Positions 4,511-9,284 of a stretch of DNA of 64,000 bases are shown piece by piece. Each line of letters begins with the position of its first letter. Position 1 is the first letter of the stretch. Where the stretch lies: NCBI RefSeq assembly GCF_024502345.1, contig NZ_JALDNN010000001.1, one strand, 5' to 3'. The notes beneath the pieces are model-generated. The model searched no databases. It was not told the origin of the DNA and saw only the letters and a list, made by a program, of their open reading frames with translations. Origin of the DNA: Escherichia coli. Its GTDB lineage: Bacteria; Pseudomonadota; Gammaproteobacteria; Enterobacterales; Enterobacteriaceae. Position numbers and translations under genes: made by a program.

Positions 4511-5269
4511 ATGAAACAAACACAACGTCACAACGGTATTATCGAACTGGTTAAACAGCAGGGTTATGTCAGTACTGAAGAGCTGGTAGAGCATTTCTCC
4601 GTCAGCCCGCAGACTATTCGCCGCGACCTCAATGAGCTGGCGGAGCAAAACCTGATCCTGCGTCACCATGGCGGTGCGGCGCTGCCTTCCAGTTCGGTTA
4701 ACACGCCGTGGCACGATCGTAAAGCCACCCAGACCGAAGAAAAAGAGCGTATTGCCCGCAAAGTGGCGGAGCAAATCCCCAACGGCTCGACGCTGTTTAT
4801 CGATATCGGCACCACCCCGGAAGCGGTGGCGCACGCGCTGCTTAATCACAGCAATTTGCGCATTGTCACCAACAATCTCAACGTCGCTAACACGTTGATG
4901 GTAAAAGAAGATTTTCGCATTATTCTCGCCGGTGGCGAATTACGTAGCCGCGATGGTGGGATCATAGGTGAAGCGACGCTCGATTTTATCTCCCAGTTCC
5001 GCCTTGATTTCGGCATTCTGGGGATAAGCGGCATCGATAGCGACGGCTCGCTGCTGGAGTTCGATTACCACGAAGTTCGCACCAAACGCGCCATTATTGA
5101 GAACTCGCGCCACGTTATGCTGGTTGTCGATCACTCGAAATTTGGCCGTAACGCGATGGTCAATATGGGCAGCATCAGCATGGTAGATGCCGTCTACACC
5201 GACGCCCAGCCGCCAGTAAGCGTGATGCAGGTGCTGACGGACCACCATATTCAACTGGAGCTGTGCTGA
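4511..5269 (+). CDS. glpR: DeoR-family repressor of the glycerol-3-phosphate regulon
   Basis: 252 aa; N-terminal HTH, DeoR-type C-terminal domain; gene order glpEGR. Confidence 0.93.
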   Translation: MKQTQRHNGIIELVKQQGYVSTEELVEHFSVSPQTIRRDLNELAEQNLILRHHGGAALPSSSVNTPWHDRKATQTEEKERIARKVAEQIPNGSTLFIDIGTTPEAVAHALLNHSNLRIVTNNLNVANTLMVKEDFRIILAGGELRSRDGGIIGEATLDFISQFRLDFGILGISGIDSDGSLLEFDYHEVRTKRAIIENSRHVMLVVDHSKFGRNAMVNMGSISMVDAVYTDAQPPVSVMQVLTDHHIQLELC

Positions 5270-6849
5270 TCCTGCAATGCTTCCCAGGTCAGACCAAAAC
5301 GCGCCAGGTATTTGCGTAGCCGATCCGCGTCATTGACGCTGGCTTTGCCCTGGCGCGAAACATCAAAAAGCTGTCGTCCGGCAGCAGAAAGCGACTTTGC
5401 CTGGCGGCAGATAGCGATAACGTGTTCCAGTTGCATACGGTCGAAGAGATCGATGTTTTCTGCCTCTGCGCCCAGCAACGCCGTAAGCGCGGAGGGGCGG
5501 CTCTCCTGCCAGTTAAAGCGCAGACGGTTTATCTCATCTTCAACCACGTCCAGAGTAATGCGTCCGCTAGAGGCAAAGGTTGCCATTCGCGTGACGCTGG
5601 CAGAAAGCTCGCGAAAGTTACCGCGCCATGTTGCCTGGGGAGATGTCGCAAAGGCCAGCCAGGCGCGCCGCGCTTCGGTGTTAAAACGCACGCTGTCGCC
5701 GGTGAGTGAAGCGTGGCGCTCCACTTCATAATCCAGGTTAGGTTCAATATCTTCCTGGCGCTGGCGTAGCCCCGGCAGGGTGAAGGTCCAGAGATTGATC
5801 CGCGCGTACAGGTCTTCGCGAAATTTTCCTTCGGCAACCAGCTGGCGCAAATCACGCACCGTTCCGGCGATAAGCTGAAAATCACTGCTCACCTGGCGAT
5901 CGCTGCCAAACGGATAAAAGGTTTTTTCTTCAATGGCTTTAAGCAGCATTGCCTGTTCGTCTGCGCCCAGTTCGCCAATCTCATCAAGAAACAACATTCC
6001 ACCGTTGGCGCTACGTAATAATCCTTCACGGGATTCCCGCGCCCCGGTAAACGCGCCTTTTACATGACCAAACAGCGTCGACATGGCGGTATCGCCGCGC
6101 AGGGTTGCGCAGTTCACTTCCACAAACGCGCCGCTAAACTGATGCCGCGCCTGTTTTAATTCAAATATACGTCGCGCCAGAAATGACTTGCCCGCACCGG
6201 TTGGGCCGTTTAGCAGGATCGGTGCGCGGGATTTAATCGCCACTTTTTCAATCTGCTCAATCATGCGGTTGAAGTGCGGGTTACGCGTGGCAATGCCGGA
6301 CTTAAGAAAATCAAGCGTTTGCTGGCGTTCCTCGGCAAAGCGGCTGGCGATGGCGTTATAACGGCTTAAATCGAGATCGATAATCGTCACTTCACCTGCG
6401 CCGCGCGGCTGTTCTTTTTTGCGCGGAGGTGAAGATTGTATCAACCGGGCGGGCAGGTAACGCGCTTCCGCCAGCAGAAACCAGCAAATCTGCGCGACGT
6501 GGGTGCCGGTGGTGATGTGAATTAAATAGTCTTCTTTTTCTGGCTGAAACTCGTAACCACGGGCGAAATCATGCAGGCAGGCGTAAACCTCTTCGAAATC
6601 CCACGGGTTATGCAGTTCAATCTCAACGCTCACCACTTCTGTTTCTGGCGAAACGCTGGCGATATCGCGTTTAAGCGTTTCAAATAGCGAGCGCGAGCGG
6701 GCGTCATGCAATAATTCCAGTCGATCGATGACCAACGATTCTTGCTGGCATAAACAGAGTGTCGGACGCCATTTCGACCAGCGCTGACTGCCGCGCCCGG
6801 CATAATCCAGCACCGTTCCGACAAAGCCAAAAGCCACTGTTTTACGCAT
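5251..6849 (-). CDS. rtcR: sigma-54-dependent transcriptional activator of rtcBA
   Basis: 532 aa; Walker A GPTGAGKS and GAFTGA signature of bacterial enhancer-binding proteins; 3' end overlaps glpR by 19 nt (convergent). Confidence 0.93.
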
Positions 6850-6983
6850 CTTAGATATCCTTATAAAAGACGATATTTCATTATCGGTGAATTGGTTTTG
6901 TGGAAAATCTCCGTTTACGGACGTAAAGATTTAACCTATTTAAAAACAATGAATTAAAAAATTAATCTGCTTATTTAATTTTC

Positions 6984-6999
6984 TGGCACGACGGTTGCA
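6984..6999 (+). promoter_or_regulatory. sigma-54 (-24/-12) promoter for rtcBA: TGGCAC-N5-TTGCA
   Basis: exact TGGCACgacggTTGCA about 40 nt upstream of the rtcB ATG, next to a divergent sigma-54 activator gene. Confidence 0.75.
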
Positions 7000-7037
7000 A
7001 TTATCACGACAGCAAACAACGAAAAGAGAAAAACAAA

Positions 7038-8264
7038 ATGAATTACGAATTACTGACCACTGAAAATGCCCCGGTAAAAATGTGGACCAAAGGCGTGCCG
7101 GTAGAAGCCGATGCGCGTCAGCAACTTATTAATACGGCGAAGATGCCGTTTATTTTCAAACATATTGCGGTAATGCCTGATGTACACCTGGGTAAAGGTT
7201 CCACCATTGGTAGCGTGATCCCGACCAAAGGGGCGATTATTCCGGCGGCGGTGGGCGTGGATATTGGCTGTGGAATGAACGCGCTGCGTACCGCGTTAAC
7301 GGCGGCAGACCTGCCTGAAAACCTGGCAGAGCTGCGTCAGGCGATTGAAACTGCGGTGCCGCACGGACGTACCACTGGCCGTTGTAAACGTGATAAAGGC
7401 GCATGGGAAAACCCGCCTGTTAACGTCGATGCGAAATGGGCTGAGCTTGAAGCCGATTATCAGTGGTTAACGCAAAAATATCCGCGTTTCCTTAACACTA
7501 ACAACTATAAACACCTGGGAACGCTGGGAACGGGTAACCACTTTATTGAAATCTGCCTTGATGAGTCGGACCAGGTGTGGATTATGCTGCACTCCGGTTC
7601 ACGCGGAATTGGTAACGCCATCGGGACTTACTTTATCGATTTGGCACAAAAAGAGATGCAGGACCAGCTTGAAACGTTGCCATCGCGCGACCTGGCGTAC
7701 TTTATGGAAGGTACGGAATACTTTGATGATTACCTAAGAGCCGTGGCCTGGGCGCAGCTTTTCGCCAGCCTTAACCGCGATGCGATGATGGAAAACGTGG
7801 TAACGGCGTTGCAGAGCATTACGCAGAAAACGGTCAGACAGCCACAAACGCTGGCGATGGAAGAGATCAACTGTCACCACAACTATGTGCAAAAAGAACA
7901 GCACTTTGGTGAAGAGATCTACGTGACGCGTAAAGGCGCGGTGTCTGCGCGTGCTGGTCAATATGGAATTATTCCCGGTTCGATGGGAGCAAAAAGCTTT
8001 ATCGTCCGTGGGCTGGGAAATGAAGAGTCGTTCTGTTCGTGCAGCCACGGTGCCGGGCGGGTAATGAGCCGTACTAAAGCGAAAAAACTGTTCAGCGTGG
8101 AAGATCAAATTCGTGCTACCGCGCATGTGGAATGCCGTAAAGATGCCGAAGTGATCGACGAAATCCCGATGGCGTATAAAGATATTGATGCGGTGATGGC
8201 GGCACAAAGCGATCTGGTGGAAGTTATCTACACCCTGCGTCAGGTGGTGTGCGTAAAAGGATAA
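7038..8264 (+). CDS. rtcB: RNA-splicing ligase RtcB (3'-phosphate/5'-hydroxyl RNA ligase)
   Basis: 408 aa; RtcB family recognised by sequence and by context with rtcA and rtcR. Confidence 0.93.
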   Translation: MNYELLTTENAPVKMWTKGVPVEADARQQLINTAKMPFIFKHIAVMPDVHLGKGSTIGSVIPTKGAIIPAAVGVDIGCGMNALRTALTAADLPENLAELRQAIETAVPHGRTTGRCKRDKGAWENPPVNVDAKWAELEADYQWLTQKYPRFLNTNNYKHLGTLGTGNHFIEICLDESDQVWIMLHSGSRGIGNAIGTYFIDLAQKEMQDQLETLPSRDLAYFMEGTEYFDDYLRAVAWAQLFASLNRDAMMENVVTALQSITQKTVRQPQTLAMEEINCHHNYVQKEQHFGEEIYVTRKGAVSARAGQYGIIPGSMGAKSFIVRGLGNEESFCSCSHGAGRVMSRTKAKKLFSVEDQIRATAHVECRKDAEVIDEIPMAYKDIDAVMAAQSDLVEVIYTLRQVVCVKG

Positions 8265-8267
8265 ATG

Positions 8268-9284
8268 ATGAAAAGGATGATTGCGCTGGATGGCGCACAG
8301 GGCGAAGGCGGCGGGCAGATCCTGCGCTCGGCGCTGAGCCTGTCGATGATAACCGGCCAGCCATTTACCATCACTGGCATTCGAGCCGGACGGGCGAAAC
8401 CGGGGCTGCTGCGCCAGCATCTGACCGCGGTAAAAGCGGCTGCGGAAATTTGTAGGGCAACGGTGGAAGGCGCGGAGTTGGGGTCGCAGCGTCTGGTCTT
8501 CCGGCCCGGCACCGTGCGTGGCGGCGATTACCGCTTTGCTATCGGTAGCGCCGGAAGCTGTACGCTGGTGCTGCAAACGGTACTGCCCGCGCTGTGGTTT
8601 GCCGATGGACCTTCGCGTGTTGAAGTGAGCGGCGGTACCGATAACCCGTCGGCCCCGCCTGCGGATTTTATCCGCCGGGTGCTGGAGCCGCTGCTGGCGA
8701 AAATAGGAATTCATCAGCAAACCACGCTGTTACGTCACGGTTTTTATCCTGCCGGAGGCGGCGTGGTGGCAACGGAAGTCTCGCCGGTGGCATCGTTTAA
8801 CACCTTGCAACTTGGCGAGCGCGGGAACATTGTGCAGATGCGTGGAGAGGTGTTATTAGCTGGCGTGCCGCGCCATGTCGCTGAGCGTGAAATCGCTACG
8901 CTGGCGGGTAGTTTTTCCCTGCATGAGCAGAATATTCATAACCTGCCGCGTGACCAGGGGCCGGGTAATACCGTCTCGCTTGAAGTCGAAAGTGAAAATA
9001 TCACCGAACGCTTTTTTGTCGTCGGTGAAAAGCGCGTCAGTGCCGAGGTGGTCGCGGCACAGTTGGTGAAAGAGGTGAAACGCTACCTGGCAAGCCCGGC
9101 GGCAGTGGGGGAATATCTCGCCGACCAACTGGTGCTACCGATGGCGCTGGCGGGCGCGGGAGAATTTACGGTCGCCCATCCTTCATGCCATCTGCTGACC
9201 AATATCGCCGTGGTGGAGCGTTTCTTGCCGGTACGGTTTGGTTTGATAGAAACAGATGGCGTAACGCGGGTGAGTATTGAATGA
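8268..9284 (+). CDS. rtcA: RNA 3'-terminal phosphate cyclase
   Basis: 338 aa from MKRMIALDG (ORF track starts one ATG earlier at 8265); start abuts the rtcB stop. Confidence 0.92.

Follow-up and report, generated by a model that had tools for sequence, protein, structure and literature searches.

The region between glpR and malT in a 64,000-nucleotide (nt) stretch of Escherichia coli DNA (contig NZ_JALDNN010000001.1 of assembly GCF_024502345.1; this whole stretch is hereafter called the window) carries the RNA-repair genes rtcB and rtcA, preceded by a sigma-54 promoter and by the divergent activator gene rtcR, and the coding regions of rtcR and glpR overlap tail to tail by 19 nt. Is this a known RNA-repair system, and does the overlap link the activator gene to its neighbour in a way that matters for regulation? 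To the first question we answer with high confidence that this is the canonical Escherichia RNA-repair locus, consisting of rtcR and rtcBA with a sigma-54 promoter, and an already known system. The same confidence extends to the whole of the reading favoured here, which comprises the canonical rtc locus, the mechanism set out below, a passive 19-nt overlap, and read-through that is stopped by Rho. The locus has little discovery value: the same layout is present in E. coli K-12, where the promoter, the activator and the enzymes have been studied since 1998. The points of use to others are the overlap, which would reflect passive run-on of a reading frame, the Rho stops inside the rtc genes, already published for K-12, and a candidate enhancer for RtcR.

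Gene identities and correspondence with K-12

The open reading frame (ORF) listing places glpE, glpG, glpR, rtcR, rtcB, rtcA and malT in this order over positions 3269-12032. The activator gene rtcR (5251-6849, minus strand) encodes a sigma-54 enhancer-binding protein of 532 amino acids (aa), with its TGA stop at 5251-5253 as read on the minus strand; rtcB (7038-8264, plus strand; 408 aa; TAA stop at 8262-8264) encodes an RNA 3'-phosphate/2',3'-cyclic-phosphate ligase; and rtcA, also on the plus strand, encodes the RNA 3'-terminal phosphate cyclase, of 339 aa (8265-9284) or 338 aa (8268-9284), depending on the start codon chosen. On the left, the intact glpR (4511-5269, plus strand; 252 aa; TGA stop at 5267-5269) is the last gene of glpE-glpG-glpR and encodes a DeoR-family repressor with the Pfam domains HTH_DeoR and DeoRC. 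On the right, malT (9327-12032, minus strand) is convergent to rtcA. The gene identities and motifs, the sequence identity to K-12, the patterns of conservation and the lack of a terminator reported in this work all come from our own analysis of the window and its relatives.

RtcR has the domain structure of a sensor-controlled enhancer-binding protein. The RtcR domain PF06956, termed CARF in the literature (PMC9650030, PMC7790460), covers aa 2-185 over the full 183-position profile (E = 6.2e-86), and is followed at aa 187-354 by the AAA+ sigma-54 interaction domain PF00158 (E = 5.5e-51). A motif search located the Walker A sequence GPTGAGKS at aa 215-222 (6184-6207, minus strand), the GAFTGA loop, which is the sigma-54 contact motif, at aa 265-270 (6040-6057, minus strand), and the Walker B sequence LFLDEIGE at aa 286-293, the first two being the signatures to which the initial annotation had already pointed. 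In a sequence search of the PDB, the structures of NtrC, FleQ and PspF matched the AAA+ core only (aa 175-437), and no entry matched the N-terminal CARF-type domain (aa 1-185; 6295-6849, minus strand). The C-terminal region is strongly conserved in the alignment up to about aa 526, and Pfam reports no helix-turn-helix family there.

Of the two enzymes, RtcB matches PF01139 over profile positions 1-426 (E = 7.3e-133) as well as solved structures of RtcB ligases, is 98.8% identical to K-12 RtcB, and retains His337, which forms the RtcB-GMP intermediate in E. coli and whose replacement gives the catalytic mutant H337A (PMC5175333). RtcA carries PF01137 with the insert domain PF05189, matches the E. 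coli RtcA structures 3KGD, 1QMH and 3TUT (E ~1e-215), and retains His308, the adenylylated histidine in the 338-aa numbering; both H337 of RtcB and H308 of RtcA have been mutant targets in the literature. The two genes abut, as had been described, although not by a shared stop and start codon at ATGATGA: the TAA of rtcB (8262-8264) is directly followed by one ATG at 8265 and another at 8268, and no codon is shared. In RefSeq annotations rtcA begins with the second of these, leaving a 3-nt spacer.

The rtc locus of K-12 MG1655 (b3422, b3421, b4475), which PMC5175333 and PMC9650030 attribute to Genschik et al. (1998), displays the same order of glpE-glpG-glpR, rtcR, rtcB-rtcA and malT, the same overlap and the same -24/-12 element. 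Its proteins are 98-99% identical to those of the window, its intergenic region aligns readily, and the few intergenic substitutions all fall outside the promoter and a conserved CGATA-N6-TATCG block discussed below. In MG1655, rtcR occupies 3558268-3559866 and glpR 3559848-3560605, which gives the same 19-nt overlap. The 4.4 kb of positions 5000-9400 were matched, with the same annotated genes, in 5,424 of 5,426 complete E. coli genomes, at about 96% nucleotide identity in BW25113; the best identity was only 98.9% (FDAARGOS_944 and FDAARGOS_943), placing the source lineage outside the complete-genome collection. The initial annotation had taken the locus for the Rtc system, already known, under a sigma-54 promoter; this view is borne out by the Pfam assignments, by the match to K-12 in gene order, promoter and overlap, and by published chromatin immunoprecipitation sequencing (ChIP-seq) of sigma-54.

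The glpR/rtcR overlap and transcription across it

The overlap itself is real in the form first described: it spans 19 nt (5251-5269), each stop codon lies inside the opposing gene, and the two proteins end there in QLELC (GlpR) and QHSSS (RtcR). The shared bases encode only residues 528-532 of RtcR and its stop. Among loci in which glpR follows rtcR, the overlap measures 19 nt in this window, in three other Escherichia genomes and E. albertii, and in Klebsiella oxytoca, 35 nt in Intestinirhabdus alba, and 4 nt in Superficieibacter electus; its length changes while the tail-to-tail juxtaposition persists. GlpR ends in QLELC at all eight loci. The conserved body of RtcR, for its part, ends in 15 residues followed by Φ+ (Φ, hydrophobic; +, Q, K or R) near residue 526, and the tails beyond this point vary in both length and sequence (QDQHSSS, STAPAEYGDR, EMAN and others).

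The simplest reading of these comparisons is that the overlap would be a passive by-product of tight packing, with the rtcR frame running to the first stop that it encounters inside glpR. A stop further forward in rtcR would have disappeared or never existed, and the frame would then read on to the first stop antisense to the constrained last codons of glpR. The retention of 19 nt in K. oxytoca would follow from this constraint on the C-terminal codons of GlpR, so that no separate selection would be needed. As a baseline for convergent overlaps we used a published survey of 338 genomes, which describes 3'-end extension as a route by which overlaps arise and in which convergent pairs make up 7% of the well-characterised overlaps.

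Whether transcription crosses the overlap is a separate matter. A terminator scan of 4400-9500 returned terminator-like sites no more commonly than in shuffled sequence and none at the overlap, and folding across the overlap on the two strands gave z-scores of -0.72 and -1.16, not better than shuffled sequence. A bidirectional terminator embedded in the overlap was also considered, and was rejected given that neither strand folds better than its shuffles. With no intrinsic terminator between the genes, glpR-strand transcripts are expected to continue antisense into rtcR. Data from K-12 agree with this expectation. In supplementary file 2 of Adams et al. (2021, eLife), a Rho termination region at K-12 position 3559514 on the minus strand is classed as antisense to rtcR (Rho score 8.9, p = 2.7e-27). 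Coverage in 800-nt windows was 154 upstream and 29 downstream without bicyclomycin, and 153 upstream and 256 downstream with it. An ungapped alignment of rtcR maps this termination of glpR-strand transcripts to about 5603 on the plus strand of the window, 334 nt past the glpR stop, at a positional resolution that in this dataset is of hundreds of nt. Transcription of the glpR strand in K-12 thus runs beyond the overlap until Rho halts it within rtcR.

The initial annotation had suggested that transcription of each gene reads into the other; for the glpR strand this holds in K-12, with the Rho stop about 334 nt inside rtcR. By the same data, transcripts on this strand do not end well before the overlap; ends well before it on both strands would have spoken against read-through.

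The same table contains a mirror-image region antisense to rtcA, at K-12 position 3556350 (Rho score 8.9, p = 1.1e-19), which an ungapped alignment of rtcA places at about 8767 on the minus strand of the window as the termination of malT-strand transcripts. Antisense read-in, from the glpR strand on one side and from the malT strand on the other, thereby reaches both ends of the rtc locus in K-12. Many entries of the table are antisense, which indicates that Rho-stopped antisense read-in is common behaviour.

The alternative that survives best is that the overlap is a selected regulatory device, in which collisions, or a 3' duplex cut by RNase III, couple the operon of the glycerol-3-phosphate repressor to the level of the RNA-repair activator. 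We regard this as improbable. In its favour, the two mRNAs are necessarily complementary over at least 19 nt, no terminator separates rtcR from glpR, glpR-strand RNA extends about 334 nt into rtcR in K-12, and the 19 nt have been kept across Escherichia species and K. oxytoca. However, the overlapped residues of RtcR are not conserved and the overlap shrinks to 4 nt or grows to 35 nt in related genera, whereas the conserved C-terminal codons of GlpR explain the retention of the 19 nt; Rho-terminated antisense read-in accounts for many entries of that table, among them the one at the opposite flank of the rtc locus; and MG1655 and FDAARGOS_944 carry glpR as a pseudogene, and most of rtcR is missing from about 590 E. 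coli genomes, the junction being unchanged. Moreover, neither a functional link between rtcR and glpR nor work on their overlap was found in the searchable literature.

Convergent transcription across the overlap with any regulatory consequence is a little less probable still, although it would be of moderate interest if true. We give the same low weight to a joint proposal, according to which the conserved overlap, with the read-in from glpEGR into rtcR and from malT into rtcA, would be a selected tuning by interference and, separately, RtcR would repress its own gene through GATA/TATC tetramers; were this so, the carbon-source regulons next door would tune the levels of the RNA-repair activator and of its operon. 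That the overlap is an artefact of annotation or sequencing, for instance through a frameshift or the loss of a stop close to the rtcR 3' end, in genes that do not truly overlap, is scarcely credible: the survey does attribute many long convergent overlaps in databases to 3'-end extension errors, but the same stops and the same 19 nt recur in MG1655, FDAARGOS_944, O157:H7, ST131, four other Escherichia species, and K. oxytoca, an identical 532-aa RtcR within the same surroundings appears in 73 blocks of public assemblies, and stop codons, unlike starts, leave gene prediction no choice.

The sigma-54 promoter and control of rtcBA

The rtcBA promoter, TGGCACGACGGTTGCA, lies at 6984-6999 on the plus strand and is an exact match to TGGCAC-N5-TTGCA, with the GG at 6985-6986 and the GC at 6997-6998; the resulting spacing of 10 nt agrees with the TGGCAC-N5-TTGCW criterion. 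It is oriented towards rtcB and ends 38 nt 5' of its ATG, close to the distance of about 40 nt first given for it, with the divergent rtcR adjacent. This is the single exact occurrence on both strands of the 64-kb window, against a mean of 0.12 in shuffles, of which 10 in 100 contained at least one; when one mismatch was allowed, the window held three occurrences against 2.27 expected, that is, the level of chance. The motif count alone is weak to modest evidence; the weight lies with where the motif sits, how it is oriented and its identity to K-12.

The -24/-12 element is identical to that of K-12, where sigma-54 ChIP-seq places site OS35 at rtcB with the motif CTGGCACGACGGTTGCA, listed as previously confirmed (Bonocora et al., 2015); this 17-mer corresponds to positions 6983-6999. 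Transcription of rtcBA has been reported to depend on sigma-54 and RtcR, with an upstream activating sequence (UAS) and an IHF site, the AAA+ domain being repressed by the CARF domain (Engl et al., 2016; Kotta-Loizou et al., 2022). Sigma-54 occupancy and RtcR dependence, like the Rho termination region, are thus taken here from the literature. Furthermore, in a scan of RtcR loci that used one genome per species and returned 20 loci, an element of this kind was found 129-161 nt from the rtcR start codon, pointing away from rtcR, in 14 of 18 RtcR loci, and the loci with the conserved element span the Enterobacteriaceae, Pseudomonas, Accumulibacter and Desulfobulbus. The native promoter has been reported as very weak in vitro, so the perfect consensus match does not mean a strong promoter. 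The architecture had been called unusually clean, which applies to the consensus match and not to promoter strength.

It could be argued that the TGGCAC-N5-TTGCA match arose by chance and that rtcBA is transcribed from another promoter, given that 10 of 100 shuffled windows contain an exact match, that the one-mismatch count is at chance level, that the promoter is reported as very weak in vitro, and that RtcR-independent induction is mentioned in the literature for Salmonella. We attach almost no probability to this, since the motif sits 38 nt 5' of rtcB in the correct orientation and beside the gene of a divergent sigma-54 activator, has sigma-54 bound to it in vivo according to ChIP-seq in K-12, and keeps a fixed spacing to rtcR in bacteria that are far apart. 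A promoter scan of 4400-9500 found no sigma-70-like promoter.

The transcription start of rtcBA can be placed provisionally at C7010 on the plus strand, which would give a leader of 28 nt. An ApC primer has been used for positions -1/+1 of the native promoter, and in the K-12 sequence A7009/C7010 is the sole AC that stands at the expected distance; together these point to A7009/C7010, and the 28-nt leader agrees with the value of 28 that the ChIP-seq table lists for rtcB (Bonocora et al., 2015).

Besides the -24/-12 element, the sole block that is invariant in Enterobacteriaceae adjoins the rtcR ATG and reads ...TATAAA...CGATA-N6-TATCG. Here we delimited a candidate UAS at 6854-6885, with GATATC at 6854-6859 and GATA-N6-TATC at 6872-6885, which is probably the RtcR enhancer, as its conservation suggests. 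It is centred about 140 nt upstream of the proposed start, within the rtcR leader, where it overlaps the ribosome-binding region of rtcR. The CGATA...TTATCG sequence is invariant in eight enterobacterial sequences, and GATA/TATC tetramers spaced by 10 nt recur at this same location in the loci of Pseudomonas and Accumulibacter. Across 15 loci, the 60 nt beside rtcR contain 37 such tetramers as compared with 10.1 +/- 3.0 in shuffles, a figure that is not a probability given that the loci are related to each other; the next 100 nt contain seven. It is conceivable that RtcR bound at these half-sites, over its own ribosome-binding region, would also exert autoregulation. A published sequence of the RtcR enhancer was not found in the searchable literature. 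A repeat search of the rtcR-rtcB intergenic region yielded weak A/T-rich inverted repeats only, and another candidate, the TCCGTTTACGGA palindrome at about 6912-6923, was rejected for its lack of conservation beyond Escherichia.

The candidate enhancer is separated from the promoter by an A/T-rich spacer (6930-6982) with IHF-like matches, each with one mismatch, at 6944, 6952 and 6975. The literature mentions an "rtc IHF binding site" without coordinates (PMC9650030), and the spacer is its likely location.

From these elements the following course of control can be proposed. RtcR would be made from its own divergent promoter and would bind the GATA/TATC half-sites beside its own start codon. 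After relief of the repression at its CARF-type N-terminal domain, which the literature ascribes to damaged tRNA fragments with a 2',3'-cyclic phosphate end or to binding of RtcA/RtcB, ATP hydrolysis by RtcR would open the sigma-54 holoenzyme at 6984-6999, and rtcB and rtcA would be transcribed as one operon from about 7010. In this scheme we infer the enhancer site and the start site, and the same applies to the incidental nature of the overlap with glpR.

Several points weigh against the favoured reading, in whole or in part. The experimental evidence all comes from K-12 or Salmonella, other strains than this one, and complete E. coli genomes share only 96-99% identity with the window. The candidate enhancer was assigned on conservation only. 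The exact 19 nt of the overlap are kept in K. oxytoca, whose RtcR is only 84% identical, and this could reflect selection in place of the constraint from the C-terminal codons of GlpR. As to read-through, the searched dataset of Adams et al. (2021) contains neither a primary 3' end for glpR nor an rtcR-strand record downstream of the rtcR stop, and its Rho data, of low positional resolution, do not prove that the upstream reads arise from the glpEGR promoters.

Related systems and variants of the locus

The closest well-described relative outside Escherichia is the rsr-yrlBA-rtcBA operon of Salmonella Typhimurium, which shares with this locus the divergent rtcR, the sigma-54 promoter, the CARF-type sensor, and activation linked to tRNA fragments with a cyclic phosphate. 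In contrast, the Salmonella operon includes, in addition, rsr (Ro60) and genes for Y RNAs, and it reacts to prophage genes as well as to the SOS response, whereas in the window only rtcB and rtcA directly follow the promoter. In Intestinirhabdus alba and Superficieibacter electus, rtcB lies about 2.2 kb from rtcR, as compared with about 190 nt here, and the first ORF after the promoter starts with MAN...; these loci probably hold extra genes between the promoter and rtcB and may be of the Salmonella-like type. A likeness was also noted to systems of the PspF/pspA type, in which an AAA+ activator with GAFTGA acts at an IHF-assisted sigma-54 promoter and effector proteins, products of the operon, bind the activator and feed back on it, although PspF is without a sensor domain and RtcR carries the CARF-type N-terminal domain. 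With regard to its 3' end, rtcR resembles the Rho-terminated convergent genes of E. coli in Adams et al. (2021), with no intrinsic terminator and an antisense transcript that ends in a bicyclomycin-sensitive region; it differs from them in that the coding regions overlap by 19 nt, which makes the complementarity of the mRNAs obligatory and not dependent on read-through.

Regarding other elements, an Rfam search returned no family in a permissive search of 4000-10000 and none at the gathering score in the whole window, where no tRNA gene was found either. The 42-nt spacer between rtcA and malT contains a hairpin, AGCCGGAT-N10-ATCCGGCT (9297-9322), which is without a T-run on the plus strand and did not appear among the sites from the terminator scan.

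Among E. coli genomes the locus is subject to loss and insertion. About 590 of the 5,426 complete genomes cover only 27% of positions 5000-9400; the stretch between a point in rtcR and a point in rtcA is missing from them, and the 3' remnant of rtcR that overlaps glpR is kept. In ST131 strain MB1159 (NZ_CP174273.1), a deletion of about 3.2 kb runs from inside rtcR to inside rtcA, removing the promoter and rtcB and leaving as remnants a 399-nt rtcR that still overlaps glpR and a 420-nt rtcA. The glpR gene, intact in this window, is interrupted by an internal stop in FDAARGOS_944 and is also a pseudogene in MG1655. In O157:H7 (NZ_CP089034.1), a GNAT-family acetyltransferase gene and a DUF1778 gene, resembling a toxin-antitoxin pair, are inserted between rtcA and malT, in the place of window positions 9285-9326. 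Taken together, the deletions, the glpR pseudogenes and the O157:H7 insertion suggest no sign of special constraint on the rtcR/glpR junction. In Salmonella, a different toxin-antitoxin module, dinJ-yafQ, is located after the operon (PMC9879122).

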